DNA of 64,000 nt from Escherichia phage LHE287. The notes under the pieces were generated by a model. It worked only from the letters and a program-made list of their open reading frames with translations. It had not been told where the DNA came from and made no database searches. Of the stretch, positions 12,831-62,891 are shown piece by piece. Made by a program: the position numbers and the translations under genes. The stretch lies in the sequence record PP761450.1, one strand, 5' to 3'. The first letter of the stretch is position 1. Each line of letters begins with the position of its first letter.

Positions 12831-12863
12831 TATAAATATCCTCGCCTATAAAGCGAGGATATT
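12831..12863 (+). promoter_or_regulatory. T4-type late promoter TATAAATA overlapping an 11-bp hairpin that sequesters the downstream RBS
   Basis: TATAAATA at 12831-12838; perfect inverted repeat AATATCCTCGC-ctataaa-GCGAGGATATT; GAGGA RBS lies in the right arm; ATG at 12867. Confidence 0.5.
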
Positions 12864-12866
12864 ATC

Positions 12867-13034
12867 ATGTTACAAGATCTGCTGGTTTATGCGCTTCCTG
12901 GCGCGGTTGTCGGCTTCATCGCTGGTGCTCTGGTCTTCCGTAAACACGCGCAAGATGGTGAAGTGATTGTTCAGAAAGGCAAAGAGATTCTGGACCAGAT
13001 CGAAGCCAAACTGGAAGAGCTGAAGAAAAAGTAA
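12867..13034 (+). CDS. small single-pass membrane protein (55 aa), probably late-expressed
   Basis: MLQDLLVYALPGAVVGFIAGALVF hydrophobic helix then a charged coiled-coil-like tail; absent from the ORF track because shorter than 60 aa. Confidence 0.45.
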   Translation: MLQDLLVYALPGAVVGFIAGALVFRKHAQDGEVIVQKGKEILDQIEAKLEELKKK

Positions 13035-27254: not shown

Positions 27255-27255
27255 G

Positions 27256-28587
27256 ATGGTTGCTAAGAGTATTACTGTAACGGACTTTGTCAACACTGAC
27301 CATAAGCAGTTTTCTGTGGTCAACAGCATCCGTCAAATCCCTCAGCTGATTGACAGCCTCAAGCCAAGCCAGCGCAAGATCCTCTTTGCTGCTCTTGAGT
27401 ACAACAAGGAGGAGATCGTTGACCGCCTTGGTATGTTCGCCGCCGCTCGCACCAACTACAAGTCTGGTGGGGAGAACATGAGCGGCACTATCGTGAACAT
27501 GGCTCAGGGGTTCCCAGGCACGAATAATATCCCGTACTTTGACCGCGATGGCCAGTTTGGTTCTATCATGGGGCGTGATGCTTCATCTGCCCGATACATA
27601 TCCGTCGCTGTATCTGACGTTATCCGCAAGATCTTCCGCAAGGAGGATGAGGGTATCTTGGAATACAACTACCTTGGTGAAGAAAGGCTGGAGCCGAAGT
27701 TCTTTCTGCCCATCCTGCCCATGTTCCTGGTGAATGGAATCAATGGTATCGGCACCGGATATTCCACCGACACCCCGTGTCATTGCGTTAAGTCCGTGCT
27801 CAGTGCCCTGAGAGCGCTTCTCCGTGGCGAAGACCCGAAAGACTTAAAACCGTACTGGAACGGCTTCAAAGGAGAGACAGGCTATACTGAGGAAGGAAGA
27901 GCATACAGTCGCGGCATCTTCCGTCGCGTCAATGCCACCACCCTGCATATCACCGAAGTCCCAGTGGGCTGGTTTGCCAAAACCTATGAGACCAAGGTGT
28001 TGCTGCCTCTGTACAAGGCAGGTATCCTCACCGAGTACGCCAACGACACGACCGAAGATGGCTGGGATATCACGGTTGTGTTTAAGCGCGGCGAACTCTC
28101 TAAGCTGAGTGACGAGCAGGTTGAGCAGATGTTCAAGCTGTATTCAGCCACCAAGCCTGTTTGGACGGCATGGGATGAAGACGGTGTTATTCATCGTTAT
28201 TCTGGTTGGCGGGATATGTTGCTGCCGTTCTTCAATTATCGCCTGTCACGGTACGAAGACCGTCGCCAGTATCTGTTGAAGGACATGGCAGACAGGATCC
28301 GCAAGCTGGGTGACCGGGCGGTGTTCATTGAATGGGCGACGCGTGTTGATCTCCGCCAAAAGATTGACGTGCTGAAGTCTCTGTTCATGCAGGACTACCC
28401 GGACTTTGGTGGTGATCTTGACGAGTTGTTCAAGATGCCTCTGTCGTCTATTACTCTGGACGCCCGTGAGCGCCTACTGAAGCAGATTGAGAACCTTGAA
28501 GCACAGCACAAGGAATTAAGTAAGAAAGAGGACATCGATCTTTACACTGAAGACCTTGATGACCTTGAAAAGGCTCTTGGTCTTTAA
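27256..28587 (+). CDS. 52: DNA topoisomerase II medium subunit (T4 gp52-like, GyrA-like)
   Basis: LKPSQRKILFAAL motif; ATG 1 nt after the upstream stop with GAGGA RBS (the track ORF starts upstream, in overlap). Confidence 0.8.
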   Translation: MVAKSITVTDFVNTDHKQFSVVNSIRQIPQLIDSLKPSQRKILFAALEYNKEEIVDRLGMFAAARTNYKSGGENMSGTIVNMAQGFPGTNNIPYFDRDGQFGSIMGRDASSARYISVAVSDVIRKIFRKEDEGILEYNYLGEERLEPKFFLPILPMFLVNGINGIGTGYSTDTPCHCVKSVLSALRALLRGEDPKDLKPYWNGFKGETGYTEEGRAYSRGIFRRVNATTLHITEVPVGWFAKTYETKVLLPLYKAGILTEYANDTTEDGWDITVVFKRGELSKLSDEQVEQMFKLYSATKPVWTAWDEDGVIHRYSGWRDMLLPFFNYRLSRYEDRRQYLLKDMADRIRKLGDRAVFIEWATRVDLRQKIDVLKSLFMQDYPDFGGDLDELFKMPLSSITLDARERLLKQIENLEAQHKELSKKEDIDLYTEDLDDLEKALGL

Positions 28588-28626
28588 CATAGGAGGGTTC
28601 GCCCTCCTCACCTGGAGGGTTGTGCT

Positions 28627-40799: not shown

Positions 40800-41047
40800 T
40801 TGCGTTCCTCTTCTTTAATAAACTGCAATAACTCTTCCATCAGCCCTTTCTTCTTGATGAACTGTAACACCAGGATGAAGCGACGGAAGGAGCGGGGGAC
40901 AACACGATAACCCTTCGCCCAGTAGTTCACAACATTAGAACAATCCAATAAACGAGCCAGCCCAGATTGTGACACCCCGAGGCTCAGCAGAACCTTGTAC
41001 ATGTACTTCTTGTCATTTACCGGAAGCTCTTTCATTCTTAAACTCAT
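40793..41047 (-). CDS. XRE-family helix-turn-helix regulator (84 aa)
   Basis: HTH signature LSLGVSQSGLARLLDCSNVVNYWAKG. Confidence 0.5.
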   Translation of the reverse strand: MSLRMKELPVNDKKYMYKVLLSLGVSQSGLARLLDCSNVVNYWAKGYRVVPRSFRRFILVLQFIKKKGLMEELLQFIKEEERKC

Positions 41048-41270
41048 GATACTTGTCCGCTAATGTCTTGTAATATTTGTTAGGATTATACTCCTGTTTG
41101 GAATAGTGAAGAGTAAGGGAAGCACTCAGACCTAGGATAATCACGACAACGAGCGCCTTGTGGTTATTGATCTCGGGAATAGCTATCCACACCAGCAACA
41201 ACACAAGCGAGCTGATAATCAAGGACAGTAAGAACGTTAATGCAATCACCAATGCGAATAGCTCGTCCAT
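41013..41270 (-). CDS. small membrane protein (85 aa)
   Basis: Long hydrophobic N-terminal region; overlaps the start of the HTH gene by about 35 nt. Confidence 0.35.
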   Translation of the reverse strand: MDELFALVIALTFLLSLIISSLVLLLVWIAIPEINNHKALVVVIILGLSASLTLHYSKQEYNPNKYYKTLADKYHEFKNERASGK

Positions 41271-43386: not shown

Positions 43387-43640
43387 AGTCTGTTCCTTCT
43401 GTAAGTTCCCATGTATTATATGGGTGAATAGTTTATTGAATTATTTGTTATGAAACCCAGAGCCTTGCGGACTTCTTCACGATTTTTAATTTCGGTCTGA
43501 GCCTCTGTGCGATTAATCTAGCGCTTGTGATGTCGGGAGAGGGCTTTGTAAACAAGCCTTGGCGTCAATGGCATCGATTAGACAACGGATCTCAGCGCAT
43601 CAGAGGCTTGCCCAACAGCCAGTTGAAATACTTGCGCATG

Positions 43641-43853
43641 TCACTTCCTCATCAGTGAGAGTAGGTTGACCGTAGCCGGACGCGCATCAGGGGCGTAGAA
43701 GACGTCCTGAGAGTGCCTCTTACAGCACGGGCAATCCTTCGTGGCGATTACACAGGGAGCCTTGTCCACGGCAAATCCAGCGGCTTCGGCTTCCTTCACA
43801 GTGGTGAATGGCATGTAGGCACTTGTACCCTGCCCTCCGCATGAACATTCCAT
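43641..43853 (-). CDS. small Cys-rich protein (about 70 aa)
   Basis: ECSCGG ... KDCPCCKRH; ATG start one codon inside the track start. Confidence 0.4.
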   Translation of the reverse strand: MECSCGGQGTSAYMPFTTVKEAEAAGFAVDKAPCVIATKDCPCCKRHSQDVFYAPDARPATVNLLSLMRK

Positions 43854-43969
43854 CAACGTTTCCTCTTAAAGGGGATGACCAGGGCTATGATGAGAAGCAT
43901 AGCTGTAATCATCCCACATGCTATCAGACCAAAGGCGAACGACTTCAGAACAAACTCAATCAAATTCAT
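43853..43969 (-). CDS. small hydrophobic peptide (38 aa), not in the ORF track
   Basis: MNLIEFVLKSFAFGLIACGMITAMLLIIALVIPFKRKR; GAGGAAATT RBS; ATGA and TGATG overlaps with both neighbours. Confidence 0.3.
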   Translation of the reverse strand: MNLIEFVLKSFAFGLIACGMITAMLLIIALVIPFKRKR

Positions 43970-55102: not shown

Positions 55103-55123
55103 TTGTCAACTCCTATAAATAAT

Positions 55124-58918: not shown

Positions 58919-59413
58919 TTAACGGGTGATGATTTTGCTATCAGGCAGGATCAGACCAGGGTGGTCCAGGTTCTTCTGCATCTGTTGGATACTCTGCAGG
59001 ATCACGGTAGTGTCGATGTGGCGTTTCACTTTGCGCGCTTCATCACCGTAGGAGATCTGCCCCTGAGGATCGATGTAGTGGGCTGTCACAACCTGCAGAT
59101 CATAACCGCACTTGATCAGGTACTTAGCAATGTTGCTAACTTCGAGAGACAGGGACTCACCGTCCACACCAATGTTGGCTGAGTAGACGATTACGCCATT
59201 TTCTACTGCTTTTGGTTCAAACAAAACCATACCAGCGATCGTCTGGATCAAAGGAACTCCCTCGGTATCGAAAGCCACCTGATCGAACGCACCGATGAAC
59301 TCATCCGGCACTTTACCTTCGGCATCAGAAACTGTGTGTTTCATAAGGTCCAGGACGTGTTGTTGTACTTCCTCAATCGGAGCACGTTCAACGGGTTTTT
59401 CGTTTTGCATTAC
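58919..59413 (-). CDS. hypothetical protein (about 165 aa)
   Basis: Internal ATG with GGAGA RBS chosen (the track ORF extends further into the upstream gene). Confidence 0.4.
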   Translation of the reverse strand, partial: VMQNEKPVERAPIEEVQQHVLDLMKHTVSDAEGKVPDEFIGAFDQVAFDTEGVPLIQTIAGMVLFEPKAVENGVIVYSANIGVDGESLSLEVSNIAKYLIKCGYDLQVVTAHYIDPQGQISYGDEARKVKRHIDTTVILQSIQQMQKNLDHPGLILPDSKIITR

Positions 59414-59918
59414 TTTTCTCCAGTTCATAATCGCGCTCCACAACGTATTGGTAGACACGCATCTTAATATAGTCAGCACTGCCTGCTGAAGACAGCACCA
59501 TCCATCCACTACTAAGGGCATTCATCTTATATTGACCAACACCCTCTTGAAAATAACTTTTAATCTGTTCCAGCTTTCGCCCACGATGATAATACGAGAT
59601 GAGTTCGCCGATGACAATACAATCTGGATAATGCTTTTCCAATGTATTGATGTTGCGGTGAACATATACGGGTAGAACTTCTTCATCGTCGATAGGGCTG
59701 TAGTATGGGTCTACGATGACCACTTGTAGACCATAACGCAGCAGGTCTTTGACACCCAGCCGACAGAACTTATAATCTTCGTGTTTCATTGCCACATGGA
59801 GGATATTCTCTTTCTTGGCATAATCGGTCAGGAAGATAAAGAAGTCTGTGTTGGGATCGGGATATTGTATAGACAGTTCTTTGCCTATTTCACTAAAACA
59901 AAATCCGCGCATTTTCAT
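59388..59918 (-). CDS. hypothetical protein (176 aa)
   Basis: ATG-initiated ORF. Confidence 0.45.
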   Translation of the reverse strand: MKMRGFCFSEIGKELSIQYPDPNTDFFIFLTDYAKKENILHVAMKHEDYKFCRLGVKDLLRYGLQVVIVDPYYSPIDDEEVLPVYVHRNINTLEKHYPDCIVIGELISYYHRGRKLEQIKSYFQEGVGQYKMNALSSGWMVLSSAGSADYIKMRVYQYVVERDYELEKSNAKRKTR

Positions 59919-59961: not shown

Positions 59962-60768
59962 ATGAATTTACCATCATTGCCCAGAACAGAAAAGACATAT
60001 AAAAGCGACTTTTGGCCTACTGTGATCAAATATCGCGCCTTTACTGCGGGGCAACAAACTTTATTACTTCAGGTGTCAGATCCGCAAACGCCGATTGAAG
60101 AACGAGCGGCCATGATGGAGAGTCTCTTTAGCGAGTGTGTAAATGCAGGCGCACCTTTCAGTAAACTGCCAATCGGCGTTGTTGAGGAAGTGTTCATCCG
60201 CATGCGCATGATCTCCATCGGTGAATTGATGAAGATTCGTTATAAGTGTAATAATCAGATTGAAGAAACGATCGATCTGGGAGATGGTCAAGAAAAGCAC
60301 CAGATGGTTCCCTGTGAGCAGGAACTGACTCTACCTATCCCGTTGAACAACGTCAAATGCATTGCTCAGGACGGCTTCCGGGAGACGTTTGACCTGCCAG
60401 GTGGATATCACCTCAAGATGCGCCAACCTTCCTTCTCGGACGCTACGGCACTGTCTGATGCTGCAAGCGTTGAGATGATGCTGACCACCTTTATCGACTG
60501 TCTGTACGATGATGACGGTCAGGTGTGGAAGGTTGAGAATCCTGAAGAAATCGGAATCACTCCGGAAGAGGCTACTGAGCGCCGCCGTGTGAAAGAAGCG
60601 TTTGTTGAGTGGGTGAAGGATAACATCGAATCAGATGTTATTGACAGCATTACGAAGAACTTCTTCCACAAAATACCGCGCATCCACTACAAGAGTTCGA
60701 TCAAGTGTCCGAAATGTGGTAAGGAGCACAAAATCGAATTCAATAGTATTAATGAAATTTTCATTTAA
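59962..60768 (+). CDS. hypothetical protein with C-terminal zinc ribbon, possibly a baseplate assembly protein
   Basis: Internal ATG with GGAGA RBS; C-terminal SSIKCPKCGKEH; followed by a strong terminator. Confidence 0.4.
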   Translation: MNLPSLPRTEKTYKSDFWPTVIKYRAFTAGQQTLLLQVSDPQTPIEERAAMMESLFSECVNAGAPFSKLPIGVVEEVFIRMRMISIGELMKIRYKCNNQIEETIDLGDGQEKHQMVPCEQELTLPIPLNNVKCIAQDGFRETFDLPGGYHLKMRQPSFSDATALSDAASVEMMLTTFIDCLYDDDGQVWKVENPEEIGITPEEATERRRVKEAFVEWVKDNIESDVIDSITKNFFHKIPRIHYKSSIKCPKCGKEHKIEFNSINEIFI

Positions 60769-60915
60769 TGTTTGAAACTGATTTATTATCCTACTTCGTG
60801 ATGTGTGATGAATTGAAGTTACACGGCTATAGCATATTTGAAATCAACGAGTCGATGCCATGGCATCTTGACTTGTTAACCGAAGCCCTCAAGGTCAGGT
60901 TGTCTAAGAAACAGT

Positions 60916-60942
60916 AATCCCGCTTCGGCGGGATTTTTATTG
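60916..60942 (+). terminator. rho-independent terminator
   Basis: AATCCCGC-ttcg-GCGGGATT followed by TTTTATT. Confidence 0.75.
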
Positions 60943-61280
60943 GCTTAACTGTAAAATCGGTTAACACGAACTTTCTTTACCTGAAATTGCTATAATGGGC
61001 TTGTTCCCGAGTTATTTGTTGGTGTTTGTCTGTTTTGAATCAGATTGTCAGTAAAATACCATTTTTCAAGGAGTGTTCTGGGGTGTACAGTTATTGCCTC
61101 GCCCTTATGCCTCCATGGCATTGGAATGGTGCTGCCCGCATAGGGCGGTTTGATGAGCGAAGCGAATAGGATCGAATAAAACAAATAAAATGAACGGAAG
61201 CAGAGCTTCCTATAGTATATAAGGCAAAATCAGCTGCGCATAAATACCTTCAAATCCTTGTTTGACAACCGGAATTCAAT

Positions 61281-62891
61281 ATGTTAGACAATATGAGATG
61301 GTTTTACGGCACCGTTGAAGATGTCAACGATCCAGACCAAAATGGGCGAGTTGCTGTTCGCATATATGGCGTACACACCGACGATCCCGTCCTCCTGCCT
61401 ACGGACAAACTCCCATGGGCGAAGGTACTGATGCCTGCTTCTAACGCCTCCTCTGCTGGTTTAGGTTGGTCTCCAACGGGCATCATTCCTGGTACTGAGG
61501 TTATGGGGTTCGCCCTTGACGAAGCATACCAGAATTTACGCATCACCTGGACTTGGACTGGTTCAAGTCCTACTGATGGTGCCGACACAAACCCACTGGC
61601 TCTCGGGCAGGTCGTTCAATCTGTAGAACGTCAGGCGTACAACGCCGTCACTGACGTTCCTGTGAAACAAGAAGACGAACCACAACCAGATCCACAACCA
61701 CCTGTTGGTGGGTATGATCCAGAGAAGTGGATGACAATCGCTCGTGGCGAATTAGGTATCAAGGAGTATGCCGGAAAGTTCAACAACAACCCGCGCATTA
61801 TAGAATATCACAAGACAACCTCCCTTGGTGCTTCTGAAGATGAAGTGTCGTGGTGTGCGGCGTTCGTGGGTTGGGTTATGATACAGGCTGGATACACGTC
61901 TACACGCTCCGCTCTTGCCCGATCTTACCTTACATGGGGCACTCCACTGTCAGCACCACAATATGGCGCTATCGTAGTCTTCCGGCGTGGTAACAACCCT
62001 ACATTTGGACACGTAGCGTTTGTGCAGAAGTTCGATGCAAACTATGTCTGGTGTATTGGTGGCAACCAATCCGATTCAGTGAAGGTCAGTCGTTTCAGAC
62101 GTTCTTCGGTCTTGGGATATCGTTGGCCTGGTCCTGCTAACACAGCCACAGCCGCGCCTGCGCAGCAGAATGGTAAATGGTCAGAACCTATCCCAGATCG
62201 TACTCCAAAGGAACAACCGACTCCGGCTCCTACTGGGCGAGTACAGGATATTGACAACACTGGAGAAACCATGGTTCCGGCTGCGGGTGGCTCCAAATAC
62301 CCGTACAATAACGTCATGGTGTCCCGAGCTGGGCATATTATGGAAGTGGATGACACCCCTGGTGGTGAACGTCTTCACTGGATGCATAAGTCTGGGTCTT
62401 ACAAGCAAATGTTGCCGGATGGTGATGTGGTCAACAAGTCCGTCAAAGACCACTATGACCTGACGATGTTCAACAAGCGTTATTATGTCGGCGGGGACCA
62501 CAACCTGACGGTCAAAGGAACTGAAGTTCAGCGCAAGACAGGTGAGGTCTATCATTTGCATTCCAACAACTACTCAAATGTGGTTGCGGGCACAGCGCTG
62601 ATGAAATTCAGTGACCTAGCGGAAATGCAAGCGCAGAATATTCTGCGCATTATCTGCGAGACTCTGGAGGTCGGCGGGACATTGAAGGTTCCTAAGATTC
62701 TAACGACTGAGATCATCGCTGACAAACTGACTGTCGCTCAGACGATCAATGGTAACATCATATATGCCGAAGGTGCTGGTCGCGCTTCTTCTCTGTCAGG
62801 TGCAACCCCTGCATCCCCTACGGGTCCGGGTGAGATTGACATCAAGGCAGAATTAAAAGACAATGGTGGTAATTTCGGCACCAAAGAGTAA
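61281..62891 (+). CDS. baseplate central spike (gpV-like N-domain) fused to a CHAP/NlpC-P60-type peptidoglycan hydrolase
   Basis: gpV-like N-terminus WFYGTVEDVNDPDQNGRVAVRIYGVHTDD; hydrolase region with Cys in EVSWCAAFVGWVM and His in NPTFGHVAFV. Confidence 0.55.
   Translation: MLDNMRWFYGTVEDVNDPDQNGRVAVRIYGVHTDDPVLLPTDKLPWAKVLMPASNASSAGLGWSPTGIIPGTEVMGFALDEAYQNLRITWTWTGSSPTDGADTNPLALGQVVQSVERQAYNAVTDVPVKQEDEPQPDPQPPVGGYDPEKWMTIARGELGIKEYAGKFNNNPRIIEYHKTTSLGASEDEVSWCAAFVGWVMIQAGYTSTRSALARSYLTWGTPLSAPQYGAIVVFRRGNNPTFGHVAFVQKFDANYVWCIGGNQSDSVKVSRFRRSSVLGYRWPGPANTATAAPAQQNGKWSEPIPDRTPKEQPTPAPTGRVQDIDNTGETMVPAAGGSKYPYNNVMVSRAGHIMEVDDTPGGERLHWMHKSGSYKQMLPDGDVVNKSVKDHYDLTMFNKRYYVGGDHNLTVKGTEVQRKTGEVYHLHSNNYSNVVAGTALMKFSDLAEMQAQNILRIICETLEVGGTLKVPKILTTEIIADKLTVAQTINGNIIYAEGAGRASSLSGATPASPTGPGEIDIKAELKDNGGNFGTKE

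Follow-up and report, generated by a model that had tools for sequence, protein, structure and literature searches.

A probable promoter and conserved structured RNA upstream of the baseplate spike gene in Ackermannviridae phages

Introduction

What precedes the baseplate spike gene of Escherichia phage LHE287, and what might it do there? We analyzed a window of 64,000 nucleotides (nt) from this phage (sequence record PP761450.1; all coordinates are those of the window unless another genome is named). Our subject is positions 60769-61280, between a gp26-like baseplate hub gene and a gp5-like baseplate spike gene. A first-pass annotation had described this stretch as a non-coding region that may contain a small RNA or several promoters to time the expression of the spike. 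The stretch is in fact a composite: a translationally coupled gene of 49 amino acids (aa) with its terminator, followed by a regulatory spacer of 363 base pairs (bp). We consider it highly probable that the spacer holds a promoter together with a structured + strand RNA, one member of a family. Related copies lie before a gp6-like baseplate wedge gene and the sliding-clamp gene (gp45), and we refer to the three as the gp5, gp6, and gp45 copies of the module. We discuss the fold, its copies, and its promoter, weigh the functions that could explain them, and compare the module with known phage systems.

The spacer is conserved across genera

The window belongs to an Agtrevirus-like Ackermannviridae phage. 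The 2.2 kb around the spacer are 99.3% identical to Escherichia phage vB_EcoM-RPN242 (hereafter RPN242), 94-95% identical to Shigella phage Ag3, and ~86% identical to the Dickeya Limestoneviruses; as a query they match 268 phage records, every one an Ackermannviridae-type phage of enterobacteria. The spacer alone matches 269 records, with ~73% identity to Kuttervirus and ~72% to Taipeivirus, and its 92.3% identity to Limestonevirus compares with 86.0% for the 2.2 kb that include the coding flanks. Between-genus identity peaks at 61081-61140 (0.78-0.82), a level equal to that of the better-conserved parts of the flanking genes.

Conservation of the gap across related phages was a check proposed by the first-pass annotation, and the 363 bp prove to be common to Aglimvirinae, Kuttervirus, and Taipeivirus. 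Parts of the spacer persist in Miltonvirus (phiMAM1) and Nezavisimistyvirus (Bue1), and one hairpin even in a Vibrio phage. A 21-nt invariant core returned only the same Ackermannviridae contigs from IMG/VR and nothing from 185,579 species genomes; in the JGI metagenomes it gave three matches within unrelated coding sequences, which we judge to be chance.

A folded RNA with covarying helices

The core of the module spans 61053-61217. From 5' to 3', its folded part consists of the following elements.

61107..61129, + strand: H-type pseudoknot (Ha), stem AUGCC/GGCAU (61107-11 with 61117-21), with loop CCAU (61113-16) pairing AUGG (61126-29)
61131..61149, + strand: hairpin Hb, GCUGCCC-GCAUA-GGGCGGU
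61153..61167, + strand: hairpin Hc with tandem G·A pairs, AU-GA-GC-GAA-GC-GA-AU
61168..61195, + strand: A-rich, A+T-rich linker AAUAGGAUCGAAUAAAACAAAUAAAAUGAAC
61196..61216, + strand: hairpin Hd, GGAAGC-AGA-GCUUCC, then an invariant TATA(G/A)T

The four hairpins were derived from alignments, and as a control the 3' partner of each helix was slid by 1-3 columns. Among 14 distinct gp5-type sequences, 99.7% of cells are paired in Ha, Hb, the standard Hc pairs, and Hd, with five pairs changing on both sides; the slid controls reach 29-47%. Across 18 gp5-type and gp6-type sequences, all 288 of 288 cells in Ha, the pseudoknot helix, and Hb are paired, with five compensatory pairs, against 21-57% in the controls.

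In the pseudoknot, the loop CCAU finds its partner AUGG four bases past the Ha stem. Stem 1 has five pairs, two of them compensatory (AU/UA to CG/AU between gp5 and gp6 copies). Stem 2 has four pairs, one of them compensatory: A-U in 11 sequences and C-G in seven, with Taipeivirus and CRW-SP2 changed. Both helices thus covary with every cell paired, as expected of an H-type RNA pseudoknot. Hb has two compensatory pairs, and its 1-nt indels are confined to the loop. On the opposite strand its conserved G-U pairs would become C·A mismatches, which assigns the fold to the + strand, the sense strand of gp5.

Hc follows a common form of closing pairs, G·A, A·G, G-C, C/U-G/A, and a loop of variable size, from 3 nt up to an inserted 18-nt stem-loop. 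The motif occurs once or twice in each gp5, gp6, and gp45 copy and also in Vibrio phage D509, always with paired flanks; in the gp5 copies the closing pair covaries from U-A to C-G. The linker that follows (GC content 0.32-0.38, AT skew +0.46) varies in sequence, and its A-richness is constant in all copies. Hd has compensatory variants, GGAUGC/GCAUCC, GGCUGC/GCAGCC, and GGCGGC/GCCGCC. Since it lacks a + strand T-run, Hd is not a canonical terminator; the TATA(A/G)T behind it could be a further -10 element, or Hd itself could be a weak stop signal.

Several other structural assignments were tried and rejected. A hammerhead-like string, (C/U/G)UGAUGA-GC-GAA-GC-GAA, is limited to Aglimvirinae; Kuttervirus has GUUACGA..GAG and Taipeivirus UCACGA..GAG, and no ribozyme in Rfam matches. 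An RNAalifold helix of CUCG (61099-61102) with GCGA never varies and is broken by a 1-nt deletion in one Taipeivirus, which leaves it unsupported over Hc. For anti-Shine-Dalgarno pairing, the CCUCC loop could pair with AUGGAG, the ribosome-binding site of gp6 in Agtrevirus and Kuttervirus, but the changes in Taipeivirus do not compensate and gp5 has no GGAG. A scan also flags Hd as a minus-strand terminator; no minus-strand unit needs one there, and Ag3 carries a separate annotated terminator for the nearest minus-strand gene.

The first-pass annotation had also suggested a covariance-model search for structured RNA. Run against all families of Rfam 15 at E values up to 10, it found nothing within 60943-61280, and the gp6 and gp45 copies gave only matches below threshold, driven by terminators or due to chance. 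Neither a tRNA nor a tmRNA was found in 60769-61280.

Paralogous copies precede gp6 and gp45

A covariance model of the core (R1) was searched in the RPN242 genome. Immediately before the gp6-like baseplate wedge gene it finds a copy (52.5 bits, E = 7e-11), and before the sliding-clamp gene a partial one that comprises Hc and the A-rich tail (18.4 bits, E = 0.017); the two loci fall outside the window. Inside the window, blastn, motif searches, and the covariance model yielded no second copy. Both paralogs are conserved in Aglimvirinae, Kuttervirus, and Taipeivirus, and the gp6 copy also in Miltonvirus; among 100 further loci of distant gp5 and gp6 relatives, R1 recovered two Miltonvirus loci only.

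The gp6 copy retains the pseudoknot loop, the linker, and Hb, and its Ha stem reads CAGCC/GGCUG against AUGCC/GGCAU, which amounts to two pair-preserving changes. It has no Hd and continues in the direction of its gene. An additional hairpin of the Hc type, GUUGU-GA-G(C/U)-loop-(G/A)C-GA-ACAAC, is present in both the gp6 and the gp45 copies. The first-pass annotation drew on one sequence only, to which the pseudoknot and these paralogs were necessarily invisible.

Two observations concern the copies themselves. In the Salmonella phage Mansal, the gp5-type Hc has a 6-nt insertion, GAGCGAGGGCGTCAGCGAG, resembling the longer gp6-type insert GAGCGAGGGCGTCAGCCCCCTCGCGAG, which suggests sequence exchange between paralogous modules. 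In RPN242 (40990-41050 of that genome), the gp45-type module is followed by an A+T-rich tract with a ~19-nt tandem duplication, ATTATTATCTTTAATAAAG present twice; it occurs in the two most window-like genomes (RPN242 and one IMG/VR contig), and other relatives have a single copy.

Promoter-like elements upstream of the fold

Two candidate promoters lie upstream of the pseudoknot.

60988..60996, + strand: TGCTATAAT, extended -10-like hexamer and weak promoter candidate
61053..61091, + strand: promoter-like unit of the module, with an A-tract (61053-56), TTTTTC (61062-67), an 18-nt spacer, and the -10-like TACAGT (61086-91)

The unit at 61053-61091 is shared by the family: each gp5, gp6, and gp45 copy opens with an A-tract and a (C/T)TTT(T)C box, and 18-19 nt further on comes a hexamer. 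Ten hexamers occur across copies and genera (TACAGT, TATGGT, TATAAT, TATCTT, TATGCT, TATCGT, TATCCT, TAATAT, TACTAT, and TATTAT), and all read TAnnnT. A hexamer that keeps T, A, and T and leaves its three middle bases free is characteristic of a sigma-70 -10 element. The transcript is predicted to start at ~61096-61099, which would place the pseudoknot at its 5' end. A T4 MotA-dependent middle promoter was rejected as a model for this unit: the TTTTC box sits 18-19 nt from the -10, and a MotA box (TGCTTtA) needs 11-13 nt.

The TATAAT that the first-pass annotation noted near 61000 is present at 60991-60996 with TG in front. It has no -35, and across genera it reads TATAA(T/C/A); its -7 base is not conserved, with TATAAT, TATAAC, TATAAA, and TATATT all occurring. 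Elsewhere in the window we found neither a copy related to TGCTATAAT nor a motif common to TGnTATAAT sites. The string TTTCTTTA at 60972-79 has the right MotA-box spacing to this TATAAT, but it is unconserved and the -7 base varies. The module unit is a second promoter-like unit, better supported than the TATAAT near 61000. The proposal of several promoters or a small RNA stands in outline, with a late promoter (discussed below), this second unit, and a structured RNA with covariation; the hexamer first singled out is the weaker candidate. As lone motifs such hexamers do not exceed chance, CATAAATA of the late promoter being expected 1.2 times per window. What goes beyond chance is their conservation across genera.

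A putative late promoter lies downstream of the module

61239..61246, + strand: CATAAATA, T4-type late-promoter-like element, 35 nt upstream of the spike ATG, with conserved ATAAATA

This element, placed near 61236 by the first-pass annotation, is already known. A late promoter, Porf084, was proposed for the spike gene in Ag3 (Anany et al.), and the LIMEstone1 record annotates a "putative late promoter" here. Of 22 distinct spacer sequences from the core genera, 21 have ATAAATA unchanged and one, CRW-SP2, has AATAAATA; phiMAM1 and Bue1 also keep ATAAATA. A putative late promoter lies downstream of each module copy; the site before gp6 reads CTAAATA. As for the machinery, which is known from annotation only, Ag3 is reported to have homologues of gp55, gp33, and gp45 (Anany et al.), and a sigma factor of RNA polymerase appears in the RPN242 record together with a sliding clamp and clamp loaders.

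Further late-type signals were seen elsewhere. Two exact TATAAATA octamers, at 12831-12838 and 55114-55121, stand ~30-35 nt before + strand starts at 12869 and 55156 and are candidate late promoters. Late promoters of Ackermannviridae may also have an upstream element: a CGCGCGAG-like box stands ~25-35 nt ahead of a late-type (C)(A/T)TAAATA or CTATAA element. All genera show it before gp6, Taipeivirus also before gp45, and Bue1 and phiMAM1 before gp5.

What the module might do

We favor a cis-acting role for the module, tentatively and at somewhat less than an even chance: its RNA may be a promoter-proximal leader. Before late transcription, host RNA polymerase would start at the module promoter, perhaps aided by a phage factor that reads the TTTTC box, and the resulting transcript would have the structured RNA as its 5' end. 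This RNA would act in cis, as a protein-binding or polymerase-modifying leader, and decide whether, or how stably, a pre-late transcript goes past Hd into the spike gene. Late transcripts would start downstream at CATAAATA and bypass leader control. Pre-late transcription of the module and the action of its RNA are steps that we infer. The preference for a cis-acting leader comes from three features: the absence of a canonical terminator behind the fold, the continuation of the gp6 copy towards its gene, and the bypass that the late promoter offers.

Several points weigh against this reading. The fold ends ~110 nt before the spike start, with the late promoter between, which makes direct control of translation by occlusion of the ribosome-binding site unlikely. 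The upstream box (TTTTC with its A-tract) is unlike a TTGACA -35, and a promoter scan does not call it. The gp45 copy has neither pseudoknot nor Hb, so that the function shared by the three copies may rest on Hc and the A-rich tail alone, an arrangement that fits the rival explanations equally well. Single-sequence folding energy is unremarkable (z = -1.49), and the case therefore rests on comparative evidence, in which there are few independent compensatory events, some of them possibly spread among paralogs by gene conversion. Finally, a literature search for transcript data on any Ackermannviridae phage found none.

Two other explanations accept the RNA and give it a different task. Each module could produce a stand-alone small RNA of ~120-150 nt from its TAnnnT promoter, ending at the next hairpin (Hd for gp5), and the three would form a family acting in trans on targets or proteins of the host or the phage. 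The compact succession of promoter, folded RNA, A-rich stretch, and hairpin would suit such a unit, as would the three paralogs of similar size per genome and the invariant loop and linker bases GCCUCC and GGAAUGG, which suggest a specific binding partner; the late promoters downstream of the modules would also make the main expression of the genes independent of the module. The 3' end is the difficulty: Hd is followed by UAUAGUAU, which has no U-tract, a scan calls no + strand terminator, and the gp6 copy lacks an Hd-like hairpin altogether. There is also no similarity to any Rfam small RNA, and we regard this explanation as unlikely, if worth keeping in view. The modules could instead be replication origins of the T4 oriF/oriG type, in which a non-late promoter and an A+T-rich unwinding element yield an R-loop transcript that primes the leading strand, here with a pre-folded primer; ColE1 RNA II is a precedent for a pre-folded primer RNA. 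In T4, which has about five origins, oriF and oriG are ~100 bp each, combine a sigma-70-like -10 promoter with an A+T-rich unwinding element, and lie near strand-switch regions; oriE is next to repEA/repEB, beside gene 5. In each module, likewise, 60-100 nt separate a promoter-like unit from a strongly A+T-rich stretch. Divergent intergenic regions are the setting of the gp6 and gp45 copies, and the gp5 copy is 1.3 kb from a strand switch. Yet T4 R-loop formation is independent of specific sequence, unlike the strong selection on RNA fold and loop bases here, the tract resembling an unwinding element is short (~30 nt in the gp5 copy), and the gp5 copy has no iterons. An origin function is improbable in our estimate, though still a serious rival. 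So is its more elaborate form, in which the modules before gp5, gp6, and gp45 would be early origins whose pseudoknot and tandem-G·A hairpins position the A-rich 3' tail for a persistent R-loop.

Two further explanations dispense with a functional RNA fold. The conserved blocks might be regulator sites in double-stranded DNA, Hd for instance being a palindromic operator within a TTGAAC-15 nt-TATAAT promoter. Hd is indeed a perfect palindrome exactly between GAAC and TATA(A/G)T, and its half-sites change together like those of a dimer-binding site. The G-U pairs of Hb, which become C·A mismatches on the other strand, tell against this, and neither the pseudoknot pairing nor the tandem G·A of Hc with its variable loops (3 nt to an 18-nt inserted stem-loop) has a rationale in duplex DNA; we give this explanation little credence. 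The remaining candidate, that the core encodes a micro-protein of 20-28 aa such as MYSYCLALMPPWHWNGAARIGRFDERSE, starting from a GTG at 61084 after AAGGAG, was rejected and seems to us next to negligible. One frame, ..PPW(H/L)WNG.., stays open in 23 of 23 distinct gp5-type and gp6-type sequences, AAGGAG stands 9 nt before the GTG in Aglimvirinae, and small coding sequences (CDSs) are annotated in the May, KE28, and Mansal records. Start codon and Shine-Dalgarno sequence are nevertheless unconserved between genera, the annotations differ in frame, and five positions, each within a loop or linker, show 1- or 2-nt indels. Variable sites show no codon periodicity (3/2/5 at the three codon positions, against 15/12/33 in the neighboring 49-aa gene), and changes between paralogs preserve pairing while altering residues (M to Q, H to L). 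A tryptophan/arginine (W/R) position varies within Kuttervirus, and no PHROG family matches.

Relatives carry short hypothetical CDSs in or next to the spacer in inconsistent frames and strands, mostly inside the RNA core. In the compared stretches they lie at 1362-1556 (May), 1381-1479 (KE28), 691-765 and 897-1013 (Mansal), and 2691-2822 on the minus strand (ChubbyThor). They are probably spurious predictions, those inside the core in May, KE28, and Mansal included.

The 49-aa gene and its terminator

60768..60917, + strand: conserved small gene of 49 aa (ORF49), whose ATG overlaps the gp26 stop codon (TAATG)
60916..60942, + strand: intrinsic terminator of the gp26/ORF49 transcription unit, with an 8-bp stem, 5 G-C pairs, and a T-run

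The first-pass annotation saw no open reading frame (ORF) with a plausible ribosome-binding site anywhere in the gap. No ORF of at least 80 aa indeed separates the gp26-like gene, which ends at 60768, from the spike gene, which starts at 61281. The label "non-coding" fails for the first 150 bp all the same, and since 60768-60917 is coding, the true spacer is 363 bp (60918-61280). That annotation had named a conserved small protein gene in relatives as evidence that would overturn its view; such a gene exists, for those 150 bp only. ORF49 is an annotated CDS in RPN242, Ag3, ChubbyThor, JA15, and LIMEstone1, and the Ag3 record gives its homologue no identifiable ribosome-binding site. It matches its own family, phrog_9633, over its full length (E = 2.9e-39). 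Variable sites at codon positions 1, 2, and 3 number 15, 12, and 33, the third-position excess typical of a real gene, and ORF49 is the best-conserved segment of the region between genera (0.85-0.89 identity).

ORF49 had no Pfam match. It has a weak match to phrog_634, "baseplate hub assembly catalyst" (E = 4.4e-4; 47 residues, profile positions 60-107 of 121), and it follows directly after the PF12322 (gp26-like) gene. It is possibly a short gp51-like baseplate hub assembly factor. T4 has the gene order 26-51, a hub protein followed by the hub assembly catalyst, and the small gene directly after gp26 with its weak gp51-family match recalls this pair; the protein here differs in being only 49 aa long, in overlapping the gp26 stop, and in lacking an AUG at the conserved first codon in several genera. 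ORF49 deserves consistent annotation.

The start of ORF49 calls for separate comment. At its first codon, Aglimvirinae and a Vibrio phage have ATG, Kuttervirus and Taipeivirus have ATT, Bue1 has ATA, and phiMAM1 has ATC; the ten codons after this one are conserved at the protein level with synonymous changes. Methionine/isoleucine alternation is what would be expected of an internal residue, and two codons before the gp26 stop the string A-UUU-UC is invariant. Together these raise the possibility of a -1 frameshift that fuses gp26 and ORF49; reinitiation at non-AUG codons is the alternative.

The terminator, found where the first-pass annotation had placed a strong one, consists of AATCCCGC-TTCG-GCGGGATT followed by the tail TTTTTATT and overlaps the ORF49 stop codon. 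Its stem varies between genera in a compensatory manner (CCCGC/GCGGG, CCCCAC/GTGGGG, CCCCGC/GCGGGG; GCCCUCC/GGGGGC in Bue1), which argues that it is real; it has the features of an intrinsic (Rho-independent) terminator, covariation included, and is annotated in the LIMEstone1, May, and KWBSE43-6 records.

Flanking genes and other observations in the window

59962..60768, + strand: gp26-like baseplate hub gene (Pfam PF12322 T4_baseplate, E = 4.9e-46; called baseplate hub in relatives), whose stop codon shares bases with the start of the next gene (60768)
61281..62891, + strand: gp5-like baseplate spike gene (Pfam PF06714 Gp5_OB and PF05257 CHAP)

A perfect sigma-70 consensus promoter on the + strand at 59749-59776 (TTGACA, 16 nt, TATAAT; 12 of 12 bases) lies within a minus-strand ORF (59388-59918) and is directed at the gp26-like gene ~190 nt downstream. 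The claim that 60769-61280 is the largest gap in the window holds loosely: 43387-43965 (579 bp) also contains no ORF of at least 80 aa, although RPN242 has two tiny genes annotated there, and the tRNA region at the start of the window is longer. An apparent 1.4-kb gap at 27255-28626 is filled by a 470-aa ORF. ARAGORN identifies the second tRNA of the window, at 561-644, as tRNA-Tyr (GTA, 84 nt); the feature equated with it in RPN242 by order and spacing only, unaligned, is annotated as tRNA-Ser (136034-136122 of that genome). The tRNA positions imply a length difference of ~3.3 kb between the two genomes somewhere upstream of the spacer.

Significance and comparison with known systems

Public annotations already include the terminator, the late promoter, and the 49-aa CDS. 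The promoter and structured-RNA module, with its pseudoknot and three-copy distribution, is absent from Rfam, and a literature search on Ackermannviridae transcriptomes, promoters, and small RNAs found no description of it. The RNA motif family thus appears to be new, although its general kind, promoter-proximal structured phage RNAs, is already known. As candidates for biocontrol and therapy, Ackermannviridae (ViI-like) phages are in wide use, and their regulation is essentially uncharted: early and middle signals were not identifiable and the late motif was unconfirmed (Kutter et al.). The present work defines a testable class of non-late promoter (A-tract/TTTTC, 18-19 nt, TAnnnT), coupled to a covariation-supported RNA fold; each genome has three copies, two ahead of baseplate genes and one ahead of the sliding clamp. 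If the RNA is a leader or antitermination element, it would explain pre-late expression of some structural and replication genes. If it is an origin primer, it would locate origins that are sequence-defined and structure-dependent in a family with no known origin, a ColE1-RNA-II-like solution combined with a T4-like replisome.

The putative late promoter resembles its T4 counterpart, TATAAATA, which depends on gp55, gp33, and gp45. CATAAATA matches seven of its eight bases and stands close before a late structural gene, and by annotation the phage encodes gp55-, gp33-, and gp45-like proteins; it differs in its first base, C, and in the CTAAATA of the gp6 site.

For the RNA, the HK022 put and lambda nut sites are the counterparts of a cis-acting leader. 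They too are short structured RNAs just downstream of non-late promoters, in several paralogous copies per genome, with stems kept by covariation; put and nut RNAs act in cis on the transcribing complex, as the module RNA may. At the predicted 5' end, Ag3, JA15, EspM4VN, and two IMG/VR contigs have an exact CGCTCTTA, which we take to be the lambda boxA sequence, and other genomes are one or two bases off. The octamer is unconserved: it is CGCCCTTA in the window and CGCCTTTA in Kuttervirus, and it is absent from the gp45 copy. The module also differs from put and nut in having no sequence or Rfam similarity to them, no boxB-type GNRA-like hairpin, and no identified N-like protein. The leader of T4 gene 32 shares a compact 5' H-type pseudoknot followed by an unstructured A-rich stretch with AAUAAA-like repeats. 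The A-rich stretch here stops short of the ribosome-binding site, with a hairpin and the late promoter between, and the element precedes gp5, gp6, and gp45 instead of a single-strand-binding protein gene, to whose leader it has no sequence similarity.

T4 oriF and oriG, together with ColE1 RNA II, offer the remaining comparison. The likeness lies in a sigma-70-like -10, a non-canonical upstream box, a downstream A+T-rich region, a size of ~100-150 bp, and a few copies per genome near strand-switch regions. The upstream box here keeps 18-19 nt from the -10 in place of the 11-13 nt of a MotA box, and ViI-like phages are reported to lack MotA and AsiA (Kutter et al.). T4 R-loops, moreover, need no specific RNA sequence, whereas the RNA of this module is under strong structural selection.

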